Counted from the stretch's first letter, positions 6,945 through 64,000 are shown. The stretch: DNA of 64,000 nt from an uncultured Candidatus Saccharibacteria bacterium (GCA_964362545.1 CAYIEM010000001.1:17424-81423); one strand, 5' to 3'. A program made the numbers and translations. Notes: generated by a model from the sequence alone, not told the origin.

Positions 6945-6980
6945 ACTTAAAATATAACAGACTTATGGTAAACTAATCAA

Positions 6981-7841: not shown

Positions 7842-7856
7842 CTCAAGAATATGAAT

Positions 7857-8072
7857 CTACACTAGTTTTTTCAACTCTTCTTCGTATTTTTTCATCACTT
7901 CCATTCCGGCCGTATCTTGATCCATTCCACTTTTTACTTTTGCTTGTATTTCTTCTGCGATAGTTTTGAAAAGCTCCGGATTTTTCTCCATCATCTTTAT
8001 AAACATATCAATCTGCGCTTCCGGCACACTCTGTTTGGCAAGCATCTTTTTTAATAAATAATTTTTAAACAT
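7857..8072 (-). CDS. Hypothetical small K/E-rich helical protein
   Basis: The ORF track ORF 7857-8201 overlaps the upstream gene. Internal ATG at 8070-8072 (MFKNYLLKK...) gives a non-overlapping 71-aa product. No homology recognised. Confidence 0.3.
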   Translation of the reverse strand: MFKNYLLKKMLAKQSVPEAQIDMFIKMMEKNPELFKTIAEEIQAKVKSGMDQDTAGMEVMKKYEEELKKLV

Positions 8073-8094
8073 AAAACCAGTATAGCATAAATTT

Positions 8095-8937: not shown

Positions 8938-8953
8938 ATGCTATAATAATAAC

Positions 8954-9973: not shown

Positions 9974-10034
9974 ATATACTGAGCGTTGTATTATTAAAGA
10001 GTCGAAATATAAGATTTTAAAATAAACAAATTTT

Positions 10035-10205
10035 ATGGCTATAGAATCAACTCCCGAAAGTAAAAAAGACCTGCTGGAGAGAATAAATGTAGAAATACAA
10101 ATGTACGAGGATGAAATAAAGAAGAGAGAAAGTAGAGGAGAAGATGTTTCGCACCTTAGAGTAAGCTTAGAAAGTTTAAGAGAACAGGCTGGAAAACTAA
10201 AATAA
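10035..10205 (+). CDS. Hypothetical 56-aa coiled-coil protein
   Basis: Hand-translated ORF not in track: MAIESTPESKKDLLERINVEIQMYEDEIKKRESRGEDVSHLRVSLESLREQAGKLK*. Followed 30 nt later by an intrinsic terminator. No clear SD. Confidence 0.25.
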   Translation: MAIESTPESKKDLLERINVEIQMYEDEIKKRESRGEDVSHLRVSLESLREQAGKLK

Positions 10206-10234
10206 GAAGACTGCAAAAGAACAACGAAAAAAAA

Positions 10235-10261
10235 CCGGCTAGCTTAGCCGGTTTTTATTTT
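10235..10261. terminator. Bidirectional rho-independent terminator
   Basis: Stem CCGGCTA/TAGCCGG with 3-nt loop, A8 run upstream and TTTTTATTTT downstream. Lies between the convergent small ORF/PfkB unit (+) and the transposase (-). Confidence 0.6.
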
Positions 10262-10339
10262 CAGCACTCTTTTCACCGCCTTTTTGATATCCTTCACCCC
10301 CATGCCGTAATGCTCGATGAGCTCATCCAGCTTGAACTT

Positions 10340-10358
10340 GACAAGGTTAAACCTTGTC
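10340..10358. repeat. REP-like 19-bp palindrome copy 1 (GACAAGGTTAAACCTTGTC)
   Basis: 9-bp stem GACAAGGTT/AACCTTGTC around a single A. Overlaps the 3' end of the transposase gene. Confidence 0.8.
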
Positions 10359-11075
10359 CGCGTTGTTGTCCGCGCTGTCTTCGTTAGCATCCTTAAACTT
10401 CAGCCATTCCTTTACAAAATCTCCAAAATCCAACTTGGAGCTAAAGTATTCTGGAAATTCCGATACGTCAATAATTTTGCTTTCTACCCTACTGACCCCA
10501 GCGAGATCCAAGTAACTGGAATATCTATATTCGCTCAGGTATTTTTCCGATTCATGCAGATTTTTAATTCCATTCTCTTTCCACTCAGGGTCGATTAATT
10601 TAACTGGATTTAAGTTTATATAAGCAAAAAGATATTTCAAATATTCGTCTTTCGTCACATGCTTCGCCTTAAAAGTACCTTGGAAAAGCGAACCATTTCT
10701 GTCGTTCTTCTTGTTGAAATACATCGTGTAAGCTGTTTGCAATTTTTGCATGAACTTACTAACCCCATTGTCTACCCTCTCTTTAATCAATAAATGAAAA
10801 TGGTTTGGCATCAAACAAAATGCGCCTATACTAACCAATGTTTCTTTTCTATCCATTTGAAAAATCTCGGACAAGGTTAAACCTTGTCTTAACTGGTCGC
10901 CAATATCCACCCTTTCGTAACTGTTGCATGAGTAAAGCAGAACCAGAAAACGCGAGTAATCATTCGCGTTTGTAAAAATTTTCCTTTTATCAGTACCTCT
11001 GTTATATAGATGGTAATATTCGCCTATTGAGAATTCCAAGTTTCTTGTCATGCATACATGATAACTAAAAAACAA
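10347..11075 (-). CDS. IS200-like / REP-associated tyrosine transposase (Y1 HUH, COG1943)
   Basis: EYYHLYNRG...DYSRFLVLL...AFCLMPNHFHLLIKE (HUH motif)...MQKLQTAYTMYFNKKNDRNGSLFQGTFKAKHV...YINLNPVK. Start may be the internal MTRNLEF. Confidence 0.75.
   Translation of the reverse strand: MFFSYHVCMTRNLEFSIGEYYHLYNRGTDKRKIFTNANDYSRFLVLLYSCNSYERVDIGDQLRQGLTLSEIFQMDRKETLVSIGAFCLMPNHFHLLIKERVDNGVSKFMQKLQTAYTMYFNKKNDRNGSLFQGTFKAKHVTKDEYLKYLFAYINLNPVKLIDPEWKENGIKNLHESEKYLSEYRYSSYLDLAGVSRVESKIIDVSEFPEYFSSKLDFGDFVKEWLKFKDANEDSADNNADKV
10870..10888. repeat. REP-like palindrome copy 2, inside the transposase coding sequence
   Basis: Exact 19-mer. Encodes RQGLTLS in-frame within the tnp ORF. Confidence 0.8.
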
Positions 11076-11081
11076 GATTTT

Positions 11082-11100
11082 GACAAGGTTAAACCTTGTC
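11082..11100. repeat. REP-like palindrome copy 3
   Basis: Exact 19-mer immediately upstream of the tnp start and abutting the tkt C-terminal-subunit stop. Confidence 0.8.
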
Positions 11101-12099
11101 CGGTTTATTTCGATCGAGGATTTTATGCGCTGCTTTTTGGATGTCCTTCACCCCCATTCCGTAATGCTCGATGAGTTCGTCGGGTGTACCGGACTGGCCG
11201 AATTTGTTTTGCACCCCGATGAATTCCATCGGCACCGGGTAATTTTGCGCGAGCACCTCGGCAACTACGCTCCCCATGCCGCCGGAAACTTGGTGTTCTT
11301 CGACTGTAATAATCGCTTTGCACTCTTTTGCCAAAGCTATGATGGCTTCGTCGTCTGTCGGCACGATTGATGACAGATTCATTACTTTAGTTTTTACACC
11401 TTCCGTCTCCAATTCTTTAGCCGCGAGCATCGCGCGGTGAACAAGCGCGCCGGTGGCGATGATTCCGACATCTGCTATCCCGACATCCGGAATCCAAAAT
11501 ACCCGCGCCTTGCCTATTTCAAAAGGAGTTTCTTCAGTAGTTATGATAGGTGTCTTCTCTCGAGCCAGACGCAGGTATGCCGGCTTTTTGGTTTTAGCGA
11601 GAACAAGCGTCACCTTTTTTGCCTCTATGCTATCGCACGGGCTAAGCACATCCATATTGGGAAGCACTCGCATCAGCGCGATGTCTTCAAGCGCTTGGTG
11701 CGTGCCACCATCAGGACCCACAGAAATACCCGCGTGCGAACCGACTATCACCACCTTTCTGTCGTTGTAAGCAATCGTCGTCCTTATTTGTTCCCAATTG
11801 CGCCCTGGAGAAAACATCGCGTAAGAAGAACAAAAAGGAATTTTACCCATAGCGGCCATCCCCGAAGCCACAGTCACCAAATTCTGCTCCGCCACACCTA
11901 CTTCAATAAATCTCTCCGGAAATTTTTCTTTGAAAAAATGCATTTGCGTAGACTCCGTCAAATCCGCGCAAAGCGCCACCACATTTTTATCCGCCTCTCC
12001 TGCCAACACGAGTCCCTGCCCGAAACCTTTGCGAATAGGCGCCTGTTCGCAGTCTTGATTGAAAATCTTCGGATTTAATTTTAATGCTGGGTTTAACAT
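11089..12099 (-). CDS. tkt: Transketolase, C-terminal (pyrimidine-binding) subunit
   Basis: 336 aa. FGQGLVLAGEADKNVVALCADLTEST...IEVGVAEQNLVTVASGMA, typical split-Tkt subunit B. Confidence 0.85.
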   Translation of the reverse strand: MLNPALKLNPKIFNQDCEQAPIRKGFGQGLVLAGEADKNVVALCADLTESTQMHFFKEKFPERFIEVGVAEQNLVTVASGMAAMGKIPFCSSYAMFSPGRNWEQIRTTIAYNDRKVVIVGSHAGISVGPDGGTHQALEDIALMRVLPNMDVLSPCDSIEAKKVTLVLAKTKKPAYLRLAREKTPIITTEETPFEIGKARVFWIPDVGIADVGIIATGALVHRAMLAAKELETEGVKTKVMNLSSIVPTDDEAIIALAKECKAIITVEEHQVSGGMGSVVAEVLAQNYPVPMEFIGVQNKFGQSGTPDELIEHYGMGVKDIQKAAHKILDRNKPDKV

Positions 12100-12222
12100 G
12101 TTGTTTGTTTAGTTTTTTGAAATATACTTTTCACAGGGGTTTGGCGAGCATCGGCGAGCCAACTTCAGGAATTTTTATGCTTCAAAAATTCCGTACCGGA
12201 GAAAAGTGATATTTCAAAAAAC

Positions 12223-13098
12223 TTACTGATGCTCACTCCTAATTTTACCGCCAAGCGTACGCAACTCTTCTAATGCAATCTTTGCTTCATCTTTGTTTGG
12301 TGTTTTACCATGCCAATGATAATCTCTGTCAAATTCTTTCACTCCTTTACCAGGGATGGTTCTCGCTATCAATACGGACGGTTTTTCAAAAACTGCCTTC
12401 GCTCGCTCTATCGCGCTATTTACCTCTTCAAAGTCATGCCCGTTTACCTCCTGTGCATGCCAGCCAAATGCTTCGTATTTCAAGACCAAGTCGCCAAGAG
12501 GCATTATGTCTTCGGTGTAACCATCTATTTGAATATTGTTTCTATCCACTATCACTATCAGATTATTTAATTTTTCCTTGGACGCCAAAAGAATAGCTTC
12601 CCAGGTGTTCCCTTCATCGTGCTCGCCATCGGAAAGTAGTGCATAAATATATCTCTCGGAATTTCTATCTCTATCGATCCTATCCGCGAGTGCCATGCCT
12701 ACCGCTTGCGAAAGCCCAGCACCTAGCGGTCCAGAGGAAGTTTCAAGCCAAGGCATGTATTCCCTATGTGGATGACCTTGAAGTCTAGTACCAAACTTGC
12801 GCAAAGTCTTCAATTCTTCTATGGGAAAATATCCTGCGTGCGCCATAGTCGCGTATAATACCGGACATATATGCCCGTTTGAAAGCACCAATCTGTCGCG
12901 CTCTTCCCCAATAGGACTTCCTAGCGGATTTTTAGGGTCGTGTTTCAAAACATGAAAATAAAGAAGAGTAAAAATATCAGCCATACCGAGAGGTCCCGCC
13001 GTATGCCCACTCCCGGCTTCTACCAACATCTCAATAATGCTTTCTCTAATGTCGTTAGCTTTTATCTCTAGCTCCTGTATTTTTTCTTGAGTTAACAT
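12223..13098 (-). CDS. tkt: Transketolase, N-terminal (TPP-binding) subunit
   Basis: 291 aa. GSGHTAGPLGMADIF, GHPH, DGEHDEGNTWEA motifs. Confidence 0.85.
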   Translation of the reverse strand: MLTQEKIQELEIKANDIRESIIEMLVEAGSGHTAGPLGMADIFTLLYFHVLKHDPKNPLGSPIGEERDRLVLSNGHICPVLYATMAHAGYFPIEELKTLRKFGTRLQGHPHREYMPWLETSSGPLGAGLSQAVGMALADRIDRDRNSERYIYALLSDGEHDEGNTWEAILLASKEKLNNLIVIVDRNNIQIDGYTEDIMPLGDLVLKYEAFGWHAQEVNGHDFEEVNSAIERAKAVFEKPSVLIARTIPGKGVKEFDRDYHWHGKTPNKDEAKIALEELRTLGGKIRSEHQ

Positions 13099-51251: not shown

Positions 51252-52085
51252 CTACGGTTTTAATGCTTTACATTCATTGTTATCTGTTGTCCAAGACTTA
51301 TACACTGGATGAAAAGAACTACACTCAACTTGCGACGCACAATAACTTGAAATTTCTGTCGTTGAAATTTCACTACAAAGAGACTCATCGTGACGTTTTA
51401 TTGCTTGATTTAAAAAACAGATGTCTTCTGTTGTAGAGTATATTCCTCTCTTACACCACTCAGTAGAGGCTTGTTTACTACCCAATCTCTCATAGCTTGA
51501 AATTTCTCTTTCATGATCTTGAAGTTTTTCACTAGCATACCAAACCCCAATGTATGAAATAAAAACAAAAAGAATGGCCATACATAGCGACCAACGTATT
51601 TTAACTCGTTTAAATCCATCTTTAATGAGTACTGGCCAACTCATGGCAAATATAAATACAGGAAGGCTGAAGATAGCAACAAGTACTCCCTGCTCTCCAA
51701 AATCCGAGCAACTCATCATTAAACAAAATTTTGTATTATATCCAATAATAATAATCACCCCCAATATTGGAATCAAAAAAAAGAACACCTTCCAAAAAAT
51801 ACGTCTGCGATCTTTATCATTATAAAAAGACAGAACCGATGCGAGTAAACTTGCTGTAAATGTAATAATGGATGCGTTTTCTAACCAATGTGCGTAAACA
51901 GAATAATCTTGATACGAGATACCTCCGCTAGGAGTAATATATAATTCTTGAAAGAATCCTTTGCCTTCCGTATACATAAAAACGCATATCATGGAAATAC
52001 AAAAAAAGAATATAGAAATTAAAAACCATTGTCTAGGAGATAAAAGGTTACACCAAGCTGATATTTTTGTTTTCCACGATTTCAT
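51252..52085 (-). CDS. Hypothetical polytopic membrane protein with Cys-rich C-terminal tail
   Basis: 277 aa, about 6 TM helices. C-terminal about 90 aa has 10 Cys. Confidence 0.35.
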   Translation of the reverse strand: MKSWKTKISAWCNLLSPRQWFLISIFFFCISMICVFMYTEGKGFFQELYITPSGGISYQDYSVYAHWLENASIITFTASLLASVLSFYNDKDRRRIFWKVFFFLIPILGVIIIIGYNTKFCLMMSCSDFGEQGVLVAIFSLPVFIFAMSWPVLIKDGFKRVKIRWSLCMAILFVFISYIGVWYASEKLQDHEREISSYERLGSKQASTEWCKRGIYSTTEDICFLNQAIKRHDESLCSEISTTEISSYCASQVECSSFHPVYKSWTTDNNECKALKP

Positions 52086-52088
52086 AAA

Positions 52089-53123
52089 TTAGTCGCTCCA
52101 ATCTATACCACCTTCTCTCATTTTTTGCTTAATAAACTTATCGTGCTTTTCTGACTTTTCATCGTCGTTTTTACCTTGAAAGTTAGTGGTTTCCGCTTCT
52201 AGAAATATAGGATAGCGTTTAATGTACTCACTAGGATTATTAAAGTAATCAAGGGCTGTTTTAATCCAATCTGATGGTGTTAAAAAAACTGTGATTAAGT
52301 AATCTACGGCACCGAGTTGTATTCCCTTAGTAATGTTCTCCCTTAGACTCATATTGCTTACAAAAATGACTGGTATGTCTTTAGTTCTCTCATCTGCCTT
52401 TAACAATTCAATAGCTTCATATCCGAATCTGCCTGGCATGACAATATCTAGGAAAATTAGATCTGGCTTGATATTAAAAACTTTCTCCACAAAATCACCA
52501 TTGGCATTTTCTAGCGCATCAACCAAAAAACCAACCTGCCCAAATTTGGTTTTATACATATCTCGTAAAACCTCATCGTCGTCAACAAGAAGAATCTTAC
52601 CTTTTGTTTTCATGTTGTTTTTAGTTTTTAGTTTTTCTCTTAATTCATCTATTTTTTCTGGTCTAATAAAATTAAGACTATTATTACCCTGAGCGATCAT
52701 TAACATATCGGGTTCAAGGTATGTTTTATGAATTTCTCCTTTCTTAAATTTTTTATATAAAGCAATCTGTTCAAGAATATTTTGAAAATTTTCAGGGTAA
52801 ATCACGCTTTCCTCAGGGTTATAATCATCAGAATAAATCGAGTTGGGGTCCTCGACTAGTTCAAGGTCACTAACTCCTAAATTTTCTTTAAAAGCATCTA
52901 TCTTTTTGAATTCCTCATTTTTTATAAGTTCTTCTTGATTTTCTTTTATTAACTTAAATGGGTAACTTATAATCTTGAAAGGCAGTAAAAATAACTTCCG
53001 AATCAGCTCTAAAAAACCAGAAAGAAGTTCTCTGCCTTTTTCTGTAGAGTAAAGTATAGCTAGTAGTATTAAGAAAAGTAGGAGTGTCATTTTTTTATAT
53101 CCCGTGCACCAATACCTCCACAT
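52089..53123 (-). CDS. Membrane-anchored protein with C-terminal CheY-like receiver (REC) domain
   Basis: N-terminal TM. ILLVDDDEVLRD...DLIFLDIVMPGRFGYEAIELLK...IPVIFVSN REC motifs. No output domain. Confidence 0.6.
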   Translation of the reverse strand: MWRYWCTGYKKMTLLLFLILLAILYSTEKGRELLSGFLELIRKLFLLPFKIISYPFKLIKENQEELIKNEEFKKIDAFKENLGVSDLELVEDPNSIYSDDYNPEESVIYPENFQNILEQIALYKKFKKGEIHKTYLEPDMLMIAQGNNSLNFIRPEKIDELREKLKTKNNMKTKGKILLVDDDEVLRDMYKTKFGQVGFLVDALENANGDFVEKVFNIKPDLIFLDIVMPGRFGYEAIELLKADERTKDIPVIFVSNMSLRENITKGIQLGAVDYLITVFLTPSDWIKTALDYFNNPSEYIKRYPIFLEAETTNFQGKNDDEKSEKHDKFIKQKMREGGIDWSD

Positions 53124-53389
53124 ATACCACCGACTAAACCAAGAATAGACATAAGCAAACCTGTTGCAAAAGGATTACCGAATAATTTCGTCAGACCTTC
53201 TGGAACAGTATGAAAAAGTTTAGCAATCAGTTGGAAAGAAGTTAAAATGGCTAGTCCCCAAAAAGCGCTCCAACCCAAATATTCAAAATCACTAATTTTT
53301 GATTGAGATTTGCTGGAGTGTCTATACATCCAAACCGCTACAAACCCAGATAAAATTATTGCGAAATAAGAATATGCTTCAAAATTCAT
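53087..53389 (-). CDS. Hypothetical 100-aa 3-TM membrane protein
   Basis: ORF overlapping the start of the REC gene by 37 nt. Hydrophobic. Confidence 0.3.
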   Translation of the reverse strand: MNFEAYSYFAIILSGFVAVWMYRHSSKSQSKISDFEYLGWSAFWGLAILTSFQLIAKLFHTVPEGLTKLFGNPFATGLLMSILGLVGGICGGIGARDIKK

Positions 53390-53609
53390 ATCTTGATGAT
53401 ACTACTTAAATGCAATTTATTCAATTAAAAAAAATATAGAAAAATAAAACATATATCAAACAAACTATTTTAGATAACAATCACGCTCACGCTCATAGTA
53501 ATGAGTTTGCGCGTAACATATAAACATATTAAGCTAACACGTAATTTATTTTTATTTCAAAAAACGAGTTAGATATTTTATTTAAAAATTTCTTGTATTT
53601 TTGTAAGAC

Positions 53610-53643
53610 AAATGAAGGACCCGAGCTCGGACCCTTCATTTGA
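53610..53643. other. Strong GC-rich hairpin in ORF-free AT-rich region (AAATGAAGG-ac-CCGAG/CTCGG-ac-CCTTCATTT)
   Basis: 9-bp + 5-bp stems with a symmetric 2x2 internal loop. Possible terminator or 3' end of an unannotated RNA. Confidence 0.4.
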
Positions 53644-54525
53644 CATCTATTTTCCTTTCTTATTTTCAGCTTCAGCTTAATGCTCAAGCTATAAATAATT
53701 ATAAGACCCCTAGATTTATAACCAAAGCTATAAATAATAGTAGGCGTTTTAAATAAATTCAAACGAAAAATCTCTGCGTCTGGTTAGCGGATAAGCGTTA
53801 CTGGTTTTCTTTTTCTAGCAGGTAGTTCTACAATCTAGAGATTACTCATCTGTGATTATTCTTTGCAATCACGATGATTTTAGTGCAGTCTAGAAAGGCA
53901 GAAATGAAACTCAGCAAAAACAATAAGATACTCAAATGGTTACCGCTGGAATGGTTACATAATTATGCGTTCCGAGCGTACGGGCAGGTTTTTAGGCCTA
54001 GATTTGGTGGACTGGACAATAGATATTATTCTAAAGCCATTTGTCGAAGTGTGTATTTTTGCAAGCAACCTTTGTAACGGAAATCCCTATTCATTACAAG
54101 ACACCTCCAACTCTTTATATTTTAGACCATGCTCCTTCACTAAATCGTCCAACATGGTCCCTCAACTTGCTTATTCGAACTCCTCTATGTAGCCATTATT
54201 TGCTGTTGAGAGCAGTGATACTGGCATTGTATGAGCCTTCGTATTTCGGCATCAATGGATTCATTACAGATAATCTTCCCAATAGGTGAAGATGGTCGAT
54301 CCATGATATAGCTTAACGAGCGGTTCATTTATAAAACAAAAAATCTCTTCAGGGCGTATCTAGGATAATAGATACATCGTGAAAAGATTCTTTTACAATA
54401 TATCTTTATTCTATAAGCCCTGGTTAGCCGTAACTATTGACTAACAGATACATTATAGCATAATTTCAAGCAGAAAACAAGGAGTTTTACTACACTTTTA
54501 TTACTTAGTTTGTACAACTTTTTGC

Positions 54526-55029
54526 CTATTTAATATAGCCAATTTGGTAGAGAAAATCGGAGGTCTCATCAATTATATCCCTTACGAGAGAAGAGCAGTA
54601 GAAGGTCTTTTTGTAAACGGGTTTTATTTTATTGTAAGCTTTTTTATCAAAAGTTAAGATAAGTGCGTCAAGATCTATCCCAATACAGATAATTAAAAAA
54701 TCAGCTGTGCGTAAGCTCGTGGCAGAACTTCCAGGTTTTAGAATTTTCTTGGCGTGTTTAAAAGCTGATGTTTCTGCAATAGAAAGTATGACAATCTTCT
54801 CTTTGTGTAGAAGTCTCATAATAGCTCCTTCAACTTTTTTATAACTAATACCTTTTCGAATAAGAGTCGCTATTACTTCATATATTGCTATTGGTGGAAT
54901 AATAATTCTTACGTCAATAGATTTTTTTAAAAGTATTCCAAATATATTAACCGCATCCCGATGAAATGCATCGGATGAATCTATAGTGGCAATAATGAAA
55001 CAACTATCTATGACGACGTTTTGTTTCAT
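54526..55029 (-). CDS. PIN-domain (VapC-like) toxin
   Basis: Conserved acidic positions VIDSCF (D), YEV (E), RTADFLI (D), LTFDKK (D) in PIN spacing. 167 aa. Confidence 0.6.
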   Translation of the reverse strand: MKQNVVIDSCFIIATIDSSDAFHRDAVNIFGILLKKSIDVRIIIPPIAIYEVIATLIRKGISYKKVEGAIMRLLHKEKIVILSIAETSAFKHAKKILKPGSSATSLRTADFLIICIGIDLDALILTFDKKAYNKIKPVYKKTFYCSSLVRDIIDETSDFLYQIGYIK

Positions 55030-55207
55030 TTTTATGAGAAGATTTAATTATTATACCTTTTAGTTCTTTTGAAGCATCTCCATATCCCGCCTTAGGTATT
55101 CTTTCTATGGTAACCGTACTGGGTCGTCTGCGAGCTTCTCGAATTGGAATAAATTCTCCTGTCCTAGAGTCTCTTCCAAGTGGAAATGTTTTACTACTCT
55201 TACTCAT
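55004..55207 (-). CDS. Putative antitoxin-like small basic protein upstream of and overlapping the PIN gene
   Basis: 67 aa MSKSSKTFPLGRDSRTGEFIPIREARRRPSTVTIERIPKAGYGD.... Overlaps the PIN start by 26 nt (TA-operon arrangement). Confidence 0.4.
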   Translation of the reverse strand: MSKSSKTFPLGRDSRTGEFIPIREARRRPSTVTIERIPKAGYGDASKELKGIIIKSSHKNETKRRHR

Positions 55208-55291
55208 AAATTTATGATAACATTATTTCTTACAAATAAAAAAGCTCTCCCCAAAAAGAGCCATTTTATCTCGTTCTAGTTTTACTTAGAA

Positions 55292-55438
55292 CTACTTACG
55301 CTTAGTGTCTCCATGTCCTGATTTTGGAACCCTCTCTACCGTTGTAGAGTTGGGGCGCTGTCTAGCTTCTCGGACAGGTATGAACTCACCTGTCCTAGAG
55401 TCTCTTCCAAGTGGAAATGTTTTTGAGTTTTTACTCAT
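55292..55438 (-). CDS. Paralogous copy of the small PIN-associated gene (48 aa)
   Basis: Hand-translated: MSKNSKTFPLGRDSRTGEFIPVREARQRPNSTTVERVPKSGHGDTKRK*. About 70% identical to the first 45 aa of 55004-55207. Not in track (under 60 aa). Confidence 0.35.
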   Translation of the reverse strand: MSKNSKTFPLGRDSRTGEFIPVREARQRPNSTTVERVPKSGHGDTKRK

Positions 55439-55774
55439 AAATATTTAGTTGCTTGAGTTTAAAGTTGATAAGCAGGTGTCAGCTATGGTATACTAAAAGT
55501 CTATTAGGTTCTTAGCATATTGATAATTAGCTTCTCGAATTGACCGACACAGAGTAAATAATTTTGATTTTATATAAGGGGGAATCTCCTAATCCGATTT
55601 AAACACCTGAATACTGTTTTTTGTCTTCCTGATAGGTCTGTATTTCTTTACCAAACAAACAGATATTTTTATAATATCACAAACTTACCACCATGTCCCT
55701 GTGAATAACTTTTTTATTCTTTAATCTGAAAAATCAGACACGACCTCGACTTTTCCTACAGTTAATCTTTATAT

Positions 55775-58700
55775 CTAAACCGTTGGCTTTATCATCTTTT
55801 CAATAAATTTAATTTCATCTTTCGTTAATTTATACTTTTTATATAATTGCTTATCAATTTCTCCTATTGATTGTTTCCAGTCTATATCTGATTTTGAAGT
55901 AAAATCTTGAAGCGGAACAAATTGGTATACATTTTGAAGAACATTCTGAGAAGTTTTTAAAATGCCCACCATGTATCTAAAAAATTTTGTTTTTATGTAA
56001 GATGCAAGAGCGAGGGCTTCAAGTTGTGTATTAAACTGACCAATTGGAATCAATGAATCTGTGCACACAGATTTTGGTCCAGCTAAATATGGTTTACCCA
56101 AGATTGAGACTTCTTTTTTGTCTGTTAATAACCCAGCACCTCCATTACCTTTAGAAATGAAAATTTTCCATTTATCAGCTAAATTAGTGTTTTTAGTAAT
56201 GTATTTTTTTTCGACGTATCTAATTTCTTCATACTTACATCTTAATTTATAGTATTTATCCTTCTTTTTGTTTGTCGATATTTTTTTTGTGTCTTTACCT
56301 AATATACCAAATGCATTTCTACCTTTTGTAATATTTGTTATAGACTTAAAATCATTACTTTTTACTTTGCTTATTATATTGTGACTAAAACTACTACTTA
56401 GAATTATATCAAGACCTTCTTCAAATAAAGGGCGTTTTTTAGTAATAAAATTTTGCTCATCATAAAACTCAGTGAATTCAACATCTCCTCGATATTCTGG
56501 ATTATACAAAAAGTAATTAACACCACCACTGATCTCTACATCTGGAAAAACTTTACTCGAGATTGGAATATTAACAATACTTTGTAAATGATTATTTTCT
56601 TTAAAAAACTCTCTCAGCCTTAAAAACGATTTGTCTTGCGCATCACCAGTAAACCATCGCGACGGAGTAACCAACGATAAATATCTTGGATTAAGGCCAA
56701 TTGACATTTTAATGAAATCTGGAAAAATCTGTCTACTTAAAGATTTATTCTTTGAATTATTACTAATTGTCTGCTGGTATGGTGGGTTTCCCACAATTAC
56801 ATCAAATTTCATATAGTTATTGTTTATTATAACACTTTCATTCTTGATTAGTTCATCTTCTTCAATCAACTCATAAGACGTAATATTTTTTTCGATGTGT
56901 TCGATATTTAATTCTAGCAGAGCATATACTTTTCTTGTAAATTCATAGGCTATCTTAGATGTGGGGATAGAATAAAAATTATTTGCTACATCTTTACCAA
57001 ATTTCTTATATACAGCGTAGATAAATTCACCTCGTTTTGAAGCGATATCAAGTAGTTTTGTAGATTTACTAATTGCTTTTTCTGGTAATGTGCTAATGAT
57101 TTTATCTGCCATAAATTCAGGAGTTACAATTTCAGAATCAGACAAACGACTAAATTTTTTCAGAGCATTACTTGCTCTTTCTACTGGTCTAATGGTTGAA
57201 TCGTTTGCTAATGAATTTATATTGTGAATTTTGTAATCCAACTCACTGAGCACAAATGGATTGATATGTTTTTGAAACAAAGTAAGTATATTTTTACTAA
57301 TTCCTATATTTGAAACAATACGCACATTCTTTTCATCACTTTCAATTGCATGGATTACATCTTGGAGTGATTTGATTCTTGAATCAGTAAGGAGCGCAAA
57401 AAATAATATTTTAGCGTAGTACATCGCAAACTTTTTCTTATAATCTTCTTCTAAACCGTTTTCATCTGCGTCAGATTTTTTATCCAGCTCATTTGTTTGC
57501 GTGTTTTCTTTTACAACTTCTCCGAGGTCAATATCATCGCCTTCACCTTCAGCAGATTTGACTTCTAATCCCTGCCTTGATCCTATCTCATTTTGTCTTT
57601 CAATTTCAGCTTTAATTTCATCTATATTTAATAGAGAAAGATCCACCCCAATTGAGGTTGCCTCATCAATCACACTTCTATTACTTGAGTACTGTCTTAC
57701 TGCATCAATAATATTTGCTGGTTGGATTTCTACGATTTTATTTTTGTTTAAAACAATAATCGGAGATATGGCGAGTTCTCTTCTGATTCTTTCTTCCAAC
57801 TTAGAATTGCCATTCGATTCTATGTTTACATTATAAATTTGAGACTTATGCTCCTGCATTTCAAACATTCTGTTTGGATTAAAATCCACAAGGAGCGTTT
57901 GAGGCTTCATATTATATTTCACCGTGTCACCACCTTGTTCTTTATAAACTCGTACATACTGATTCTGCAGACGGAATATTGCTTGATCATATTCCTGAGG
58001 TGATGATGTATCTTTGAAATACAACATTGTATCCCATTCTGGCACCGTGCTCCCTGTGAGCATTCTGTTCACCGTTAACGTGATTGTTTTTATATCTTTA
58101 TTTTCACACTCTTTAATCTTTAATTGTACCGATTTGATATCTTTATAATTCTTATCACCATTAACACCTGAAATATTTATAATTTTATATTTACCAAGAT
58201 TTTTGAATGTATTCTTTTTAATTAATTCTTCTAACGCGTCACACGATGCTCTGAAAGGCAATACGCAGATAATATGACGACACATGTTACCTTTTTTTAA
58301 TTTATCGTAGTCAAGAAAACTTAATATATTTTCATCTTCTTTTGATCCGTCTATTACCTTTAATAACTCAATTATTTCTTTTTCGTGTTCAAATTTTTTA
58401 TGTAAATTATTTTTTGTATCTTTAGTTATTGATATAGGTTTAAATAATACAGAAAATGTGTAGGTAATACCATTTCTTTTAAATTCCTCCATTTTTTTAC
58501 GTGAGGACTCATTTGGATTAAATGCGAATCGAACCATCTGCGGAAACCCATAATATGGATTATCCCATTCTTTTACTTCGTCTTTATGTAGATTGTCTCT
58601 ATCCCATCTCTCTTGATCTTCTGCAATATTCGAAAACTGATAGAAAGCAATAATGTCTTCATCTGTAAATTCACTATTCATCAAAATCCGATATGGTGTT

Positions 58701-59740
58701 CCAGAGAGATGAAGGCGAACCTTAGCATTAATTGTTTTTATTGTTTTATCTAAATCATCTAAAGTATTATCAGCTAACTTTAGTTCATTTTTCATCTCTT
58801 TTACTGAGAGTGGATATTTCAATACCTTTCCATACTGTTCTGCTCGTGCACCAAAATGAGTTTCATCAATAATCAATAGATCAATTTTATTATCGAATAT
58901 TTCTTTATGTTTTGACTTTATTCCATCACCTTGTAAATCTTGCAATGTTAGAAACAAAACAATTTTTTCTTTTGCTTTCTGCTTATCTTTTACTATTGTT
59001 TTACCTTGCAAAAGATCCTTGCTATCTAGAAAACTATAGCCAGTAAATTTTTTATGACTTTCTACTGTTCTTTTCCATTCTTCTTTCACATCTGCTTTTG
59101 CAGATACAACCAGTACTAGATTTGTTGACATTTCAACCGCACAACACATAGAGGTGAACGATTTACCAAATCGCATCACCGCATACATCAATAAGTTAGT
59201 TCGTCCCTTGGTCAAAGCCTCCTTAAATCTATTTATAGTTGCTTGCTGATTTGGTCTTGGGTCATAATCTTCATCTCTTGCGTATGTATGAAAAACAGGA
59301 ATACGGCTTGTATCAAATTTGTAGTATTGATATTTATTCTCTTTATTCTTATGATTTTTTTTAATGTCTTTAATTGCACCAATCAGATCATTTTTTGAGG
59401 TATTTTTAAAAAATTCCTTAGAATAATATGGAGCTTTCCTAAGACTATCTGGAAGAAGCCGTTCTTTTTGTAGTTCTTTTTCGAGGTAATAATGAACAGC
59501 ATGATCTCTAAAAAAAGTTTGATCATCAACTTTTGCAACCTCATCAAACTTTTTTTCTAAATTAGGAAAATACTTTCTCCACTCACCAAGTCGTGTCTCA
59601 AGTGGACGATAGGTATCACCAATTTTTATATAATTAGGAATTATCTCTGTAGTAAACGCGTAAATCCTTGGTTCAACTCTCCCAATAATAATATGATCGA
59701 GTACGCTTACATCAATTTTGTTTAATTTTTTCATATCCAT
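55775..59740 (-). CDS. Single-chain restriction-modification-like enzyme: T5orf172/GIY-YIG-like N-domain + SF2 helicase + N6-adenine DNA methyltransferase + C-terminal (TRD-like) region
   Basis: 1321 aa. N-terminal IYAFTTEIIPNYIKIGDTYRPLETRLGEW (T5orf172-like). Helicase motifs MRFGKSFT (I), LLIIDETHFGA (II, DExH), LHLSGTPY (III). MTase motif IV VIVGNPPYQQ at about aa 985 with about 330 aa following. Confidence 0.6.
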   Translation of the reverse strand: MDMKKLNKIDVSVLDHIIIGRVEPRIYAFTTEIIPNYIKIGDTYRPLETRLGEWRKYFPNLEKKFDEVAKVDDQTFFRDHAVHYYLEKELQKERLLPDSLRKAPYYSKEFFKNTSKNDLIGAIKDIKKNHKNKENKYQYYKFDTSRIPVFHTYARDEDYDPRPNQQATINRFKEALTKGRTNLLMYAVMRFGKSFTSMCCAVEMSTNLVLVVSAKADVKEEWKRTVESHKKFTGYSFLDSKDLLQGKTIVKDKQKAKEKIVLFLTLQDLQGDGIKSKHKEIFDNKIDLLIIDETHFGARAEQYGKVLKYPLSVKEMKNELKLADNTLDDLDKTIKTINAKVRLHLSGTPYRILMNSEFTDEDIIAFYQFSNIAEDQERWDRDNLHKDEVKEWDNPYYGFPQMVRFAFNPNESSRKKMEEFKRNGITYTFSVLFKPISITKDTKNNLHKKFEHEKEIIELLKVIDGSKEDENILSFLDYDKLKKGNMCRHIICVLPFRASCDALEELIKKNTFKNLGKYKIINISGVNGDKNYKDIKSVQLKIKECENKDIKTITLTVNRMLTGSTVPEWDTMLYFKDTSSPQEYDQAIFRLQNQYVRVYKEQGGDTVKYNMKPQTLLVDFNPNRMFEMQEHKSQIYNVNIESNGNSKLEERIRRELAISPIIVLNKNKIVEIQPANIIDAVRQYSSNRSVIDEATSIGVDLSLLNIDEIKAEIERQNEIGSRQGLEVKSAEGEGDDIDLGEVVKENTQTNELDKKSDADENGLEEDYKKKFAMYYAKILFFALLTDSRIKSLQDVIHAIESDEKNVRIVSNIGISKNILTLFQKHINPFVLSELDYKIHNINSLANDSTIRPVERASNALKKFSRLSDSEIVTPEFMADKIISTLPEKAISKSTKLLDIASKRGEFIYAVYKKFGKDVANNFYSIPTSKIAYEFTRKVYALLELNIEHIEKNITSYELIEEDELIKNESVIINNNYMKFDVIVGNPPYQQTISNNSKNKSLSRQIFPDFIKMSIGLNPRYLSLVTPSRWFTGDAQDKSFLRLREFFKENNHLQSIVNIPISSKVFPDVEISGGVNYFLYNPEYRGDVEFTEFYDEQNFITKKRPLFEEGLDIILSSSFSHNIISKVKSNDFKSITNITKGRNAFGILGKDTKKISTNKKKDKYYKLRCKYEEIRYVEKKYITKNTNLADKWKIFISKGNGGAGLLTDKKEVSILGKPYLAGPKSVCTDSLIPIGQFNTQLEALALASYIKTKFFRYMVGILKTSQNVLQNVYQFVPLQDFTSKSDIDWKQSIGEIDKQLYKKYKLTKDEIKFIEKMIKPTV

Positions 59741-59741
59741 T

Positions 59742-60740
59742 TTAACTCTTAAGAAGTTCTATGAATGTAATCTCTCGACCTTTTTTCCCATTAACTGACC
59801 AATCTTTTATTACACAATATATACCATTATGTTTTTTAATATCATTATTAGTACAACCTAAACATTTTGACTTACTAACAGTTTTTCCTCCAAAAGTGTC
59901 AATAGTTGTACTACTTTCTTCTTTACAAGAATTAGGAATTACACCCTTTAATCCGTCCATTTGCCATACATTCCAAGAGATAATATTTGCGATACTTTTT
60001 ATTGATTTAACTTCTGGATTTTTCCCAAACTTCAAAGCATAATTTTCAATGAAAGTATACAGCATCGCTTCTCGTGCTAGCAATAAACTGTCTCCCTGCC
60101 ATTCATATCCATAGATGCTTTGGTAAGCAATTTGAGCTGCACTAGCCCATTCTTTAAGAGAACTTACATTTTCATTAATAATTCTCAATTTTCGATCTAA
60201 TATTCCAACTCTTTCTTTCACAGGAATAAATTTTCCTGTGGTTGTATCGTATCTACTTGTAATATATGGAGCTTCGCCACAAGCTATTTCTAGACGCATG
60301 TCCTTTACGTAATCTCTCCACGTCTTATTTTTAGGAAAAATTATTTTTTTAAAATTTGTTTTCCATTTCAGACCACTGTCAGATAAATCAGTTTCTTTAT
60401 TAAAGAGATCTTTTCTTTGAAACCAAGCATTGTCAACTTGATTATTTTGAGCATTACATATCCAGGCTGGAGTATAGACCTCTGCCATATTTTTGATTCT
60501 AGTATTTTGAAGAGTTTTATTCTTCAAAACTCTAGGCATTATCACCTTATTATTTTTTCCCGTAATCAAGCCTATCTTAATAAGTGATAGAAATTTATAA
60601 TCATCACCAAGATACTGGTAATTATCAGTGGCCCAAAAAATATTCCTATTTGTTGTTTGGTCACACAACAGGATATTAAGTACTTCTGGATATTTTTTTA
60701 AGATGTCATTTTCGAGGATATCTGTTTCACCCTGTTTCAT
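59742..60740 (-). CDS. Hypothetical 332-aa protein in defence operon
   Basis: Co-directional. 1-nt spacer to the downstream RM gene and 4-nt spacer to the upstream GmrSD-like gene. No recognised motifs. Confidence 0.35.
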   Translation of the reverse strand: MKQGETDILENDILKKYPEVLNILLCDQTTNRNIFWATDNYQYLGDDYKFLSLIKIGLITGKNNKVIMPRVLKNKTLQNTRIKNMAEVYTPAWICNAQNNQVDNAWFQRKDLFNKETDLSDSGLKWKTNFKKIIFPKNKTWRDYVKDMRLEIACGEAPYITSRYDTTTGKFIPVKERVGILDRKLRIINENVSSLKEWASAAQIAYQSIYGYEWQGDSLLLAREAMLYTFIENYALKFGKNPEVKSIKSIANIISWNVWQMDGLKGVIPNSCKEESSTTIDTFGGKTVSKSKCLGCTNNDIKKHNGIYCVIKDWSVNGKKGREITFIELLKS

Positions 60741-60744
60741 ATAT

Positions 60745-63207
60745 TTATTTTAATATATTCTCTAACCATAATATTGCTGCTTCTCCATTGCGTTTATCTA
60801 CCTCATTTAAATCCCTATTGTGTTTGATAGAGTTACGATAATTTTTAAAAGCACGAAAGTGTTGTTCTACTTGACCCTTGCTACCAAAGTATCTACCAAA
60901 TAATTCCCAGTTTGTTAAAATAATTTTTTCGTAATCCATTAAATCAAGAAAAGTTATTCTAACCTCGTCACGCATGTACTCTTCAAGTTTATATGGATGG
61001 CGACGCAAATCATCTTGTATTTTTTTATCTACAACATTCTGAATGTCTGATGGAACATATTCCTCCCAATATGAACCTTCTGTATCTCCTTTAAGTTTTT
61101 CATGCACAAACGAACGAACACGACCCTCAATAATATCTATTGGTTTAGTTGGGTTATTGTCAAAGTGTGCTTCGGACGCAGAACCAATACCAGTCTTAAC
61201 ACGGAACGCTTGTACTATTTTTTCAGCACGATAATCTAGAAACTTTAAAAATTCATTTGAAAGAAGTCCTGACTCTTGCATATTTGGAATAAAGTGATGT
61301 GTAAGTATTTCTGGAAGTTCGGTGTTTGTTTTTTGAAAACCTACAAAATAATCACCTGGTGCTGTGTCTAAAATTCCCACATTTGTAATTGCAGGAATAA
61401 GCATAATATTTACGATACTATCAAATACCTCTTTGTTTGCTGGTTCACTTTGTCGTAAATATGCTTGAGGAAAAACATGATGAAGATTGTGCTTGTAATA
61501 CCCAGTAAAGGCTCCATCAAGAGATATTGATCTTCCATCTGTAAGATTTTTAGGTTCAGCATTAGCATAAAGAGAAAGGACTGTTTTCACGAAAGCATTA
61601 CGTAAATTATATCTCTGCGCTATTAGATTATTCTTTAATGAAGCCCAATCAATAAGGTATGCGAATTGCGGATTTTTGCCGTCTAAAAACTCATCAAAAG
61701 CAGAACAGTCCTCTTCTATTTTTGATTCTACTGTTGAGTCATATCTATTAGATAGTGATGCGCGCCAAAACCATTGTTCTAATGCTGTAATTTCCGAATG
61801 AGATAATTCTTTCTTTTTGTGAAATATGTACGCAAGTGGTACAAGTAATCCATCAAATGGTAAGTAACTAAAATTCTTGATATGAAGTTTAGATTGTATA
61901 AACTCAACAGCAAGCAGAAGAGACTGTATAAGTGTATCCCACTCAGATTCAAGTTTCCTAATACTTGTTCGTTCTAGAATATCACGAGAACGACACTTGC
62001 GGTAATTTAGTATTACAGAGAATGTTTGAAGGATTGTTTCTTCGCGAATAGGTTCAAGAGCAGGATGTTGTTTGTAAAAATCGTCTAGAGCTTCGCGAAG
62101 TTCAAATCCTTCTCCCCAGCAACGTGCAACCATTTTAGCTACAACTGTCAATTTTTTTCCTGTTTCATTTATGCGTGAAAACATTCTTACTACCTGCTTA
62201 ACTCCTTCACTTTGTTCTTCTTCAGAAGAAGTATTTTTATCTATGACATCAATAACGGAAAAACGATAACTGGATAATCTTTCATACAATATAACTAGCA
62301 CTGACCGATATTCTTCTGGATATTTTTGAGCAACTATGTTATATGAAGCGAGACCAAGAAATAATGCACTCAACGGAACAAGAAGATTCTCATGGTCATT
62401 GTCTTCGTTACCTTCTTCGTTATTATTTTTTCGAACAACAAATTTTTTACTACGGACATCAAACAAAAAACGATAATTTTCTCCATCTATGGTGGAACCT
62501 TTTATAGCAGCAAAAAGAGATGTAATACGCTGTTGTCCATCAAGTACATATGAAATCTCAGTTCCAGGGTTAATATCTCCATGGTCAAGTTCTAGACTAC
62601 CAATATTGCGTGTATGTGGAAGCTTACGAATTGTTTTCCAGAAAATAAAACTACCAATAGGGTATCCTCGATAAATACTATCTAATAGAAAACGTATATC
62701 ACTAGGACTCCAAACAAAGGAACGTTGAAATGGAGGTATTTGAATACGACAAGTACTAATACCAGATAATAAATTCTGAAAGGTAATATCGCCTGGTTTA
62801 ACTTCCATAAGAACTTCAGGCTCGTCCTCGATTTCTTCCGAATAATCAGTCTCGTAGTCTTCAGTTTTATTTTCTGAACTCCATTTATAGTATGCTTTTC
62901 CAGAAAGATCAAAAATTTCTTGTGGTGATAAGGTTATATGTTTTTTACCTTCATCTGTGAGAATCCATTTTCCACCTGTTTTTTTTATCCAATCTGCCTT
63001 AGTAAGATTTATTGAATAAAAACGAAAAGTCGTTATCCATCTAAATTGACCAGAATTGTTTAAGCTCTTTTCCCATTCTGTGAAAGTTAGTCTCTCTTCC
63101 ATATATTTAATGAGTTCTTTTGTTGGACACTCTCCTCCTTTTTCTGCAAGGATATTAAGTGCGGTTAAAAGGTATTCACCTATTCTTTTGCTGGTTATTT
63201 TTGCCAT
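60745..63207 (-). CDS. GmrSD-family type IV restriction endonuclease-like protein (Mrr_N wHTH + DUF262 + DUF1524) with HEPN-like C-terminal motif
   Basis: 820 aa. N-terminal Mrr_N-like wHTH (NSGQFRWITTFRFYSINLTKADWI). DUF262 motifs IPPFQRSFVWS and VLDGQQRITSL. DUF1524 His-Me finger LHHVFPQAYL. C-terminal RNSIKHN (Rx4H). Confidence 0.7.
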   Translation of the reverse strand: MAKITSKRIGEYLLTALNILAEKGGECPTKELIKYMEERLTFTEWEKSLNNSGQFRWITTFRFYSINLTKADWIKKTGGKWILTDEGKKHITLSPQEIFDLSGKAYYKWSSENKTEDYETDYSEEIEDEPEVLMEVKPGDITFQNLLSGISTCRIQIPPFQRSFVWSPSDIRFLLDSIYRGYPIGSFIFWKTIRKLPHTRNIGSLELDHGDINPGTEISYVLDGQQRITSLFAAIKGSTIDGENYRFLFDVRSKKFVVRKNNNEEGNEDNDHENLLVPLSALFLGLASYNIVAQKYPEEYRSVLVILYERLSSYRFSVIDVIDKNTSSEEEQSEGVKQVVRMFSRINETGKKLTVVAKMVARCWGEGFELREALDDFYKQHPALEPIREETILQTFSVILNYRKCRSRDILERTSIRKLESEWDTLIQSLLLAVEFIQSKLHIKNFSYLPFDGLLVPLAYIFHKKKELSHSEITALEQWFWRASLSNRYDSTVESKIEEDCSAFDEFLDGKNPQFAYLIDWASLKNNLIAQRYNLRNAFVKTVLSLYANAEPKNLTDGRSISLDGAFTGYYKHNLHHVFPQAYLRQSEPANKEVFDSIVNIMLIPAITNVGILDTAPGDYFVGFQKTNTELPEILTHHFIPNMQESGLLSNEFLKFLDYRAEKIVQAFRVKTGIGSASEAHFDNNPTKPIDIIEGRVRSFVHEKLKGDTEGSYWEEYVPSDIQNVVDKKIQDDLRRHPYKLEEYMRDEVRITFLDLMDYEKIILTNWELFGRYFGSKGQVEQHFRAFKNYRNSIKHNRDLNEVDKRNGEAAILWLENILK

Positions 63208-63272
63208 AATTTAATAAGTAAAAACTTTAAAAATCATAGCATTTTTAGCTTAAATTTTAAAGTGATTTGAGA

Positions 63273-63328
63273 TCAAACAAAAAAGGTGGCATCCTGCGCG
63301 GAATACCACCTTAATTGTTTTTTATTTC
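63273..63328 (-). terminator. Rho-independent terminator (AAGGTGG-N16-CCACCTT with U-tracts on both strands)
   Basis: 7-bp GC-rich stem. On the minus strand it is followed by TTTTTTGTTTG, immediately downstream of the 63327-63569 gene and upstream of the defence operon start. Confidence 0.5.
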
Positions 63329-63569
63329 ATTCCCACTTCCCACTAGAAAACTGATACAAGGAATAATCCGCATCCGCTTCCGTCATATCTTCGAGCTCCA
63401 TAAGTTTCAATTCTCTTTCATCCTCGTCAAGAATATTCTGGTAAATAAGAGCAGTGAGTCTTTCTTTTTGGCTCTTGCTTATCATCGGAGTTTCTTCCAG
63501 GTCATATTTTGGAGGCCAGTAAAATCTTCTTGGACCATCCATATTGGCTGTAATTGTGTTCGTGTTCAT
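63327..63569 (-). CDS. Hypothetical 80-aa acidic protein
   Basis: Intact ORF followed by intrinsic terminator. No homology. Confidence 0.3.
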   Translation of the reverse strand: MNTNTITANMDGPRRFYWPPKYDLEETPMISKSQKERLTALIYQNILDEDERELKLMELEDMTEADADYSLYQFSSGKWE

Positions 63570-63591
63570 ATTTGTTTGATTAAGCTGATAA

Positions 63592-63984
63592 TTATTTCAC
63601 TGGTAAAAGAGAATTGATAAGCTCCGAGCATTCGAATTTAGAAAGATAGGGAGACTTTAGATGGTTCAGATATTCTTCTTTGCTATCATTGTCGCATTGT
63701 TCGTCTATTAACTTGGTTAAGAAGTTGCGCTGTTTGTCCGTAGCTATTTGCGGTAAATCATTTTCTGAATAGAAAGCTTTTTTGTCTCGACCTTCCAAAT
63801 CTTCTTCTTTCTGATTATTCGGCATGATATATAGCGCATCGAGTATCTTTGTTGAACGGACCATTGCATCCACGAGACTGGCATTATAAGCAAAACGGAC
63901 CGTTCTTTCTACAAATTTGTTTAGTCTGTTAAGTACGAAATTGTATTCCATAAGGCGCAGATAAGTCGCATAATGACTGACCAC
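63592..63984 (-). CDS. Hypothetical 130-aa protein
   Basis: Intact ORF co-directional with downstream small gene. No homology. Confidence 0.3.
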   Translation of the reverse strand: MVSHYATYLRLMEYNFVLNRLNKFVERTVRFAYNASLVDAMVRSTKILDALYIMPNNQKEEDLEGRDKKAFYSENDLPQIATDKQRNFLTKLIDEQCDNDSKEEYLNHLKSPYLSKFECSELINSLLPVK

Positions 63985-64000
63985 GAAAAGTTGAAGTCCA

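Follow-up and report, generated by a model that had tools for sequence, protein, structure and literature searches.

A three-gene defence block in a Saccharibacteria genome probably joins a heteromeric restriction-modification enzyme to an independently acting type IV-like nuclease

Three closely packed defence genes in the genome of an uncultured Candidatus Saccharibacteria bacterium raise the question of whether they encode one composite machine or separate functions that happen to be expressed together. The genes occupy positions 55,775 to 63,207 of a 64,000-nucleotide stretch of DNA (GCA_964362545.1, CAYIEM010000001.1:17424-81423; hereafter the window) and form a co-directional block on the minus strand (Table 1). 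The open reading frame (ORF) list gives products of 820, 332 and 1321 amino acids (aa), referred to below as GmrSD820, mid and big, with a spacer of 4 nucleotides (nt) between GmrSD820 and mid and of 1 nt between mid and big. An original prediction, made from the sequence alone, had described this layout correctly. Its proposal that the block couples a type IV-like nuclease to a helicase-methyltransferase restriction-modification (R-M) enzyme in an apparent single transcription unit is also supported, while its further suggestion, that the middle protein bridges the two in a composite system, fares less well. We consider it probable, with good confidence, that the block encodes two defence functions on one probable transcript that act independently: mid and big would together constitute a heteromeric, ATP-dependent R-M enzyme, and GmrSD820 would be an autonomous type IV-like nuclease.

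The partner of mid is evident from its genomic distribution. A genome scan yielded 80 independent mid loci and contig look-ups two more, giving a sample of 82 loci that were all found through mid. An intact big-type ORF follows mid in 60 of the 64 independent loci with at least 4.2 kb of downstream DNA, across many phyla, and the rest of the 64 loci are truncated or disrupted. The gap between the two genes in paired loci ranges from -17 to +134 nt and is mostly below 20 nt, and the downstream ORF encodes 1,280-1,337 aa in most cases, with three shorter examples reaching down to 1,021 aa. GmrSD-like genes, sought with a sensitive hidden Markov model of the 820-aa family, lie within 10 kb of mid in 4 of the 82 loci; of the 63 with enough upstream DNA, one (L042) has such a gene immediately before mid, a 602-aa form of an unrelated type that is 28% identical over DUF262 and separated from mid by 374 nt. 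Mid goes with the large gene and not with GmrSD, and the comparison of loci points to mid and big as an obligate pair.

What mid may contribute to this pair is suggested by its conserved elements. The original prediction had found no recognisable motifs in it, a statement that no longer holds, as the PADLOC model MTase_II (PDLC03390) matches mid end to end (E 9.3e-116) and elements of the kind found in gamma-type methyltransferases (MTases) are present, resembling motif X (EVYTP, aa 87) and motif I (CGEAPY, aa 154). Further conserved elements follow at aa 213 (EWQGD) and aa 256 (WNVWQMDG), and then CxxC...H...C. The family is large: of the 8,000 candidates scored, over 7,800 qualify as homologues at E<=1e-3, and there are 1,718 clusters at 50% identity; its members, from Bacteroidota, Saccharibacteria, Sulfurimonas, Limnohabitans and others, are typically ~60% identical, and some carry the name 'restriction endonuclease subunit M'. 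The patterns AEV[FY]TP (motif X), LExxCGEAPY (motif I), EWQGD and SWN[VI]WQMDG are invariant across the family, and the latter two may represent motifs II and III. The catalytic motif (D/N/S)PP(Y/F/W) was found neither in mid, by regular expression, nor among the invariant columns of the family. Nor was a target-recognition domain (TRD) found in mid, where conservation is uniform (mean column identity 69%) and a variable region is absent. In fold comparisons, the matched length increases from mid alone to a fused 'M' form found in relatives (see below), from 168 to 257 aa for LlaBIII and from 187 to 308 aa for PglX, and the fused form additionally recovers generic class-I MTases. None of the PDB sequence searches, whether run with mid, its profile, big, a profile of the fused M or one of the C-terminal region of big, found a methyltransferase. 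By its sequence, mid is most readily understood as the N-terminal half, of S-adenosylmethionine (SAM)-binding type, of a gamma N6-adenine methyltransferase and not as a methyltransferase by itself. Because it lacks NPPY and a TRD, mid would act only together with big.

Big matches the PADLOC model REase_MTase_IIG (PDLC03626) over profile positions 5-1357 of 1359 (1261.8 bits), and the T5orf172, superfamily 2 (SF2) helicase and N6-adenine MTase domains first proposed for it are all recovered by Pfam, as T5orf172, ResIII and Eco57I. The helicase motifs comprise MRFGKS (aa 189), DETH (aa 292), LSGTP (aa 345) and Q.IFR.Q (aa ~586). Beyond the helicase, a compact second N-terminal MTase half (hereafter N-half') precedes a catalytic half with NPPY, a target-recognition region and the conserved C-terminal tail PLQDF..SDIDW..LYKKY; Eco57I matches aa 920-1065 (E 2e-19) and PADLOC PDLC03375 matches aa 975-1318 (E 3.8e-47). 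The homologues of big comprise one group with 57-73% and another with 21-31% identity to the window protein, and both groups share the T5orf172-type motifs, MRFGK, DExH, LSGTP, Q.IFR.Q, motif X, an SKxG motif I, MKF..IVGNPPYQ and the C-terminal tail. The T5orf172 motifs LK.G..P..LN and NE.F are kept across the family. Swapping of nuclease domains at the N-terminus of the ~25%-identity homologues was considered and is ruled out by the family alignment, which keeps T5orf172-type motifs throughout.

Comparison with relatives in which the modules are permuted between the two proteins strongly supports a single enzyme composed of the 332-aa and 1321-aa proteins. Many members of the mid family are 650-717 aa long; in these, the mid domain runs straight into MKFDFVIGNPPYQ, after which come a TRD and a C-terminal tail shared with big. 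Mid ends exactly where the NPPY strand starts in these fused homologues. In Clostridia-type loci (L096-L099), a ~668-aa 'M' protein is followed at once by a ResIII protein of ~1,070-1,120 aa (in L096 after a 43-aa ORF). By BLAST, the Clostridial M corresponds to mid (46-49% identity) joined to big aa 977-1318 (30-32% identity), and PADLOC cuts it into PDLC03390 and PDLC03375. The Clostridial ResIII protein aligns colinearly with big from aa 7 to 991 (hhalign probability 100%, E 1e-74), spanning T5orf172, helicase, linker and a compact N-terminal MTase half (FTP...MKSGLY...), and ends just before NPPY. The N-half' profile by itself gives very weak matches to these Clostridial R proteins (7.9 and 2.0 bits), so the link between the two rests on the full-length hhalign comparison. 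One further protein, P0340, is a natural fusion of mid to the helicase protein. Both mid-containing arrangements hold the same four modules, namely mid, the T5orf172-helicase, N-half' and one NPPY/TRD module, with the last carried by mid in one and by the helicase protein in the other; as judged from these alignments, the catalytic and specificity module has moved between the subunits of an R-M pair. A third arrangement (L091, 3292-7997) consists of a 500-aa protein that combines N-half' with NPPY/TRD and an 848-aa T5orf172-helicase protein.

The same L091 locus also encodes a 222-aa protein with weak matches to MTase N-terminal models (PDLC03313, mad2 and, weakly, MmeI_Mtase), which may be a functional analogue of mid. 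Its R-M genes are followed by a GmrSD820 homologue and an Abi_C protein.

The enzyme formed by mid and big would be of the type ISP or type III kind, with a nuclease of the GIY-YIG clan. Big would supply the T5orf172 nuclease, the SF2 translocase, N-half', the NPPY catalytic half and the target-recognition region, and mid a second, very conserved N-terminal half of SAM-binding type. The complex would use its C-terminal TRD to read an asymmetric site and would methylate adenine with SAM, marking self DNA, and modification would depend on the assembled enzyme. On unmodified DNA, ATP-driven translocation by mid-big would be followed by cutting by the T5orf172 domain. Type ISP enzymes cut by collision (PMC3553950).

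A comparison with described systems shows where this pair would stand. Type ISP enzymes such as LlaGI and LlaBIII share with big an SF2 helicase followed by a gamma N6-adenine MTase and TRD, whereas their nuclease is an N-terminal Mrr-type PD-(D/E)xK domain rather than a member of the T5orf172/GIY-YIG clan. They are also single self-contained polypeptides, while big comes with a 332-aa half-MTase gene (upstream in all 82 loci, which were sampled via mid), and the window R-M proteins have no sequence-level match to LlaBIII. The two-gene layout of type III systems (Mod and Res) is shared with the Clostridial relatives, in which an MTase with TRD precedes a helicase-nuclease. In contrast, the type III nuclease is a C-terminal PD-(D/E)xK domain and that of the window family is N-terminal and GIY-YIG-like, the NPPY/TRD module of the window lies on the helicase protein, and an extra N-terminal MTase half is always present. 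Both window R-M genes match PADLOC/REBASE models end to end, 'type IIG' (PDLC03626) and MTase_II (PDLC03390 / PDLC03375), and PADLOC or DefenseFinder would therefore call mid-big an R-M system; as regards its R-M genes, the block matches named models (RM type IIG and MTase_II), an outcome that speaks in part against the original prediction. The 'IIG' label, however, implies a helicase-free, fixed-distance cutter, and given the SF2 ATPase motifs conserved in this family ATP-independent fixed-distance cleavage by big appears doubtful. The two MTase_II models, PDLC03390 and PDLC03375, are two halves of one methyltransferase. In a comparison by domain inventory only, the DnmA-YeeB-YeeC system of Bacillus subtilis and Vibrio crassostreae has the same component set, a conserved cluster in which a gamma MTase resembling MmeI/Eco57I stands with an SF2 helicase and a T5orf172 protein (PMC9973331). 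Its components are three separate proteins, though, and a half-MTase subunit is not described (PMC9973331). Literature searches for T5orf172 with Eco57I and for a split methyltransferase with a helicase found nothing, and as far as these searches show only the methyltransferase, split and permuted, stands out as unusual and apparently undescribed.

GmrSD820 has the domain order Mrr_N, DUF262, linker, DUF1524-like His-Me nuclease and Swt1-like HEPN, with the motifs PPFQRS, DGQQR, HHVFPQ and RNSIKH starting at aa 158, 223, 576 and 791, respectively. Of the domains in the original prediction, Mrr_N and DUF262 are confirmed by Pfam and the cited motifs are present; since Pfam reports no DUF1524, the DUF1524-like call rests on motifs and on the near-full-length match to PADLOC PDC-M55C, which covers aa 134-668 (E 1e-49), and the HEPN_Swt1 match to the C-terminal 140 aa is sub-threshold (E 3.5e-4, 21.3 bits against a Pfam cut-off of 27.5). 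PADLOC HEC-05 is also matched, PDC-M34B matches the C-terminus (E 3e-15), and the sole PDB sequence match is BrxU (7p9k, E 5e-13). Across 48 full-length homologues (43-91% identity), Q161/R162, D223-G-Q-Q-R227, H576/H577/F579, N600, N609 and R791/N792/K795/H796 are invariant; homologues are named as Patescibacteria, Kaiserbacteria, Giovannonibacteria, Elusimicrobiota and Nanoarchaeota. These signatures identify the protein as a putative GmrSD-type NTPase and His-Me nuclease with an added winged helix, whose HEPN RNase domain is probably active. DUF262 with DGQQR and a putative His-Me nuclease are shared with the BrxU / GmrSD / SspE family, to which the 820-aa protein adds the N-terminal Mrr_N winged helix, the C-terminal Swt1-like HEPN and an HHxFP motif; the fusion of DUF262, HNH and Swt1-like HEPN has been on record since 2013 (Anantharaman et al., PMC3710099). 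GmrSD820 would bind DNA via its winged helix and DUF262, use nucleoside triphosphates and, through the His-Me domain, cleave DNA with phage-type cytosine modifications that would escape the R-M enzyme, and the HEPN domain may add RNA cleavage.

The surroundings of GmrSD820 homologues, sampled in nine independent contexts, indicate that this protein is not bound to mid and big. The metagenome scan was queried with a single GmrSD820 sequence and gave four close loci; an alignment query would reach further. An identical three-gene block is present on further contigs (L001-L003) from the 0.1-µm fraction of the Hainich groundwater well H51, with GmrSD820 upstream of mid and big as in the window, and the same block occurs in a single diverged relative (L086; 68-72% identity, 71% for GmrSD820). 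The Hainich contigs and the names of the GmrSD820 homologues make an ultra-small groundwater bacterium the likely host. The triple, which the original prediction took to be more than a chance adjacency, does recur, but is confined to this one lineage (L001-L003, L086). Other homologues have different neighbours: an 82%-identical one (L087) lies between a helix-turn-helix (HTH) gene and genes for an EcoRI-like M, a DUF262/HNH restriction endonuclease and a Mokosh-like helicase; one of 68% identity (L088-90) follows a type I hsdM-S-R cluster; one of 66% (L091) begins 3 nt after the split T5orf172-helicase/MTase system; and two of 49% (L101) and 46% (L103) follow hsdM-S-R and YgjP with gaps of 1 and 5 nt. 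At L092/L094 an 87%-identical homologue, the closest relative outside the Hainich site, is solo between tRNA-synthetase and glycosyltransferase genes, and at L100 (63%) no R-M system is visible. In all, seven of the nine contexts are co-directional with an R-M operon and within ~90 nt of it, and the R-M neighbours of the homologues outside the triple are of three unrelated types: type I (L088, L101, L103), type II (L087) and split IIG-like (L091). Because these neighbours are unrelated and the closest relative is solo, the position of GmrSD820 before the R-M genes would provide co-inheritance and co-expression of complementary defences and not a shared machine or mechanism. The 820-aa gene thus appears, from its distribution, to be an autonomous add-on with a preference for R-M operons. 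As the family coexists with four kinds of enzymes that form N6-methyladenine (m6A), GmrSD820 would tolerate the m6A of its neighbour.

Such an association has precedents. GmrSD-like proteins are reported by Payne et al. to lie often inside Hma, BREX or type I RM systems, with a shared orientation in 96.7% of cases (bioRxiv 10.1101/2024.01.29.577857), and BrxU in BREX is a tested precedent for a type IV enzyme inside a modification-based system (bioRxiv 10.1101/2024.01.29.577857). The PDC models were built by Payne et al. from such embedded genes (bioRxiv 10.1101/2024.01.29.577857), and PDC models match the 820-aa protein. With type IV enzymes already described in BREX, Hma and type I RM, the arrangement, first regarded as not a textbook one, has known counterparts in other defence loci.

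Some of these neighbourhoods have features of their own. The L087 cluster (3873-12332) holds two distinct DUF262 nucleases in one operon; its DUF262/HNH protein matches PADLOC REase_II (PDLC03418), and its Mokosh-like (MkoA/MkoC) helicase carries DUF559/MTES_1575. A YgjP-like (M48-type metallopeptidase-like) gene lies between hsdR and the GmrSD820 homologue in two distant lineages (L101, 5328-5999; L103, 5267-5995), which suggests that hsdMSR-YgjP-GmrSD is a conserved cassette. Small HTH_3-type, controller-like genes directly precede mid or the GmrSD820 homologue in some loci (L005, 9804-10004; L087, 3873-4079); that of L005 overlaps mid, and the window has no such gene.

Several observations weigh against a mid-big R-M enzyme accompanied by an independent nuclease. 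Big already holds its own N-terminal half beside NPPY, which leaves the role of a second half, mid, unaccounted for. An hhalign comparison of the mid and big families detects no similarity, and mid and N-half' cannot therefore be shown to be paralogous. Biochemical data for any family member were not found in a literature search, and the system with the same component set, DnmA-YeeB-YeeC, is protective in Vibrio but shows no restriction in B. subtilis (PMC9973331). For GmrSD820, DUF1524 is not reported by Pfam even at E<=10, and its nuclease motif opens with HH (HHxFP) as opposed to the (D/E)HxxP of DUF1524. Finally, the 4-nt spacing and the seven of nine contexts that touch an R-M operon leave room for coupling beyond co-expression.

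The presence of two N-terminal halves allows a more specific reading of the mid-big enzyme, in which mid docks on the NPPY/TRD half of big and completes the catalytic Rossmann fold in trans, with N-half' as an alternative or pseudo-partner. We regard this as possible but unlikely. Were it true, a swap of N-terminal halves could decide between methylation on the one hand and translocation and cutting on the other, and modification would be coupled to holoenzyme assembly, a principle described for no R-M type and one that would extend to thousands of systems.

Room for coupling beyond co-expression is what a guard model would exploit. Here, GmrSD820 would watch the neighbouring R-M system in the manner of PrrC, and a phage anti-restriction factor would free its HEPN RNase and/or His-Me DNase to abort infection. 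The proximity and shared direction seen in seven of nine contexts would fit, as would the three contexts in which the gene follows hsdMSR or hsdMSR-YgjP with gaps of 1-88 nt and the invariant HEPN Rx4H motif; HEPN proteins inside R-M operons are a known theme (PMC3710099), and PrrC occurs almost only within type I RM systems (bioRxiv 10.1101/2024.01.29.577857). However, partner R-M systems of three unrelated types argue against a specific protein-protein interface, the 87%-identical homologue has no R-M neighbour and none is visible at L100 either, and the sample comprises nine contexts only. We judge such guarding to be improbable.

A still weaker case can be made for mid as an independent second MTase, which, like M.Eco57I beside RM.Eco57I, would modify the other strand or protect the host before big is made. 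Its PADLOC label (MTase_II), the 'subunit M' name of some homologues and a fold resembling that of gamma MTases, with elements similar to motifs X and I, speak for this role. Mid nevertheless has neither a (D/N/S)PP(Y/F/W) motif nor a TRD, stops exactly at the start of the NPPY strand of fused homologues and, unlike a sequence-specific MTase, retains ~60% identity across phyla with no variable region, so that a free-standing activity is very improbable. The least credible explanation is a dedicated three-component machine with mid as the specificity, anti-self or sensor link between the type IV and R-M parts: the 4-nt and 1-nt spacers, the single upstream terminator and promoter-like site and the retention of the triple in the diverged L086 are in its favour, but synteny largely refutes it, since mid accompanies big without any GmrSD in 60 of 64 loci, has a GmrSD-like gene within 10 kb in 4 of 82 and immediately before it in one, GmrSD820 homologues stand alone or beside unrelated R-M types, and mid is an MTase half fused to R-M modules in other genomes.

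Candidate expression signals lie around the block (Table 1). The terminator-like hairpin predicted ahead of the block is present, looks strong and closes the upstream unit, and a sigma-70-like promoter candidate lies 26 nt ahead of the first ATG. In this region 52 promoter-like sites were counted, against 48 +/- 6 expected from shuffles, and with no enrichment the consensus promoter and terminator matches are only suggestive. No terminator was found directly 3' of the 1321-aa gene, so read-through from big into the toxin-antitoxin genes is possible; a terminator-like hairpin lies ~510 nt past the big stop codon, after an orphan 48-aa ORF.

The flank beyond big includes the PIN toxin gene noted in the original prediction, which Pfam confirms. 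A small antitoxin-like gene (55004-55207, minus strand) overlaps it, and an orphan paralogue of this gene (48 aa, MSKNSKTFPLGRDSRTGEFIPVREARQRP...; 55292-55438, minus strand) lies ~85 nt upstream of the PIN-linked copy, the two sharing a 135-nt repeat that is 73% identical; neither copy has a match in Pfam, PADLOC or NCBIfam. Between the big stop codon and the orphan ORF, ~335 nt (55439-55774) are non-coding. A stretch of ~1.1 kb (53390-54525) has no convincing ORF, just short overlapping ORFs of 67-82 aa, and could be a degraded gene or an RNA of new type. Rfam and tRNA scans of the window found nothing, nor did Rfam at E<=1 over 53300-55800, which includes this stretch, and NCBIfam gave zero matches for the five proteins scanned. 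The three-gene block has the lowest G+C in the window (0.29-0.35, against ~0.34-0.48 over the first 50 kb). Over 52001-64000, G+C is 0.29-0.36 with its minimum over the R-M genes, which would fit horizontal acquisition; the block is not flanked by long direct or inverted repeats, and no integrase was seen.

Table 1 Coordinates of the three-gene block, its predicted domains and flanking features in the window
Feature	Position	Strand	Evidence or detail
820-aa ORF (GmrSD820)	63207..60745	minus	ORF list
Mrr_N winged helix (aa 11-89)	62941..63177	minus	Pfam E 3.1e-9, above gathering score
DUF262 / GmrSD_N NTPase domain (aa 145-356)	62140..62775	minus	Pfam E 4e-28; QR and DGQQR motifs invariant
His-Me (DUF1524-like) nuclease core	61372..61500	minus	H576 H577 x F P ... 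N600 ... N609
C-terminal HEPN (aa ~690-813)	60769..61140	minus	R791-N-x-I-K-H796 (Rx4H) invariant
332-aa ORF (mid)	60740..59742	minus	ORF list
1321-aa ORF (big)	59740..55775	minus	ORF list
T5orf172 (GIY-YIG clan), presumed nuclease (aa 26-125)	59366..59665	minus	Pfam E 5e-5 / 5.6e-6
SF2 helicase-like ATPase (aa ~159-640)	57821..59266	minus	ResIII Pfam E 1e-12, aa 159-309
Compact second N-terminal MTase half (N-half')	56816..57139	minus	motif X IVTPEF aa 871, atypical motif I SKRGEF aa 901
Catalytic NPPY half, target-recognition region and C-terminal tail	55778..56815	minus	NPPY aa 985; PADLOC PDLC03375
Intrinsic-terminator-like hairpin closing upstream unit	63312..63283	minus	12-bp stem, 5 G-C pairs, T-run
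Sigma-70-like promoter candidate	63261..63233	minus	TTTAAA, 17 nt spacer, TATGAT, TG upstream (extended -10); consensus match only
Terminator-like hairpin	55262..55243	minus	after orphan 48-aa ORF
PIN toxin gene	54526..55029		Pfam-confirmed

Read as an R-M enzyme with a type IV add-on, the three tightly packed genes do not amount to a new composite machine, and their layout is known from BREX/BrxU and type I RM. The common 'orphan M' annotation (MTase_II or 'subunit M', more than 7,800 homologues) would then denote half a methyltransferase, with consequences for the counting and matching of R-M systems and methylomes. With the same four modules in at least three gene arrangements, the family offers a natural test bed for the assembly of helicase-coupled R-M enzymes and for host safety. 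Among ultra-small groundwater bacteria and archaea, the Mrr_N-DUF262-His-Me-HEPN family appears to be a main form of type IV-like defence, usually joined to whichever R-M system is resident.

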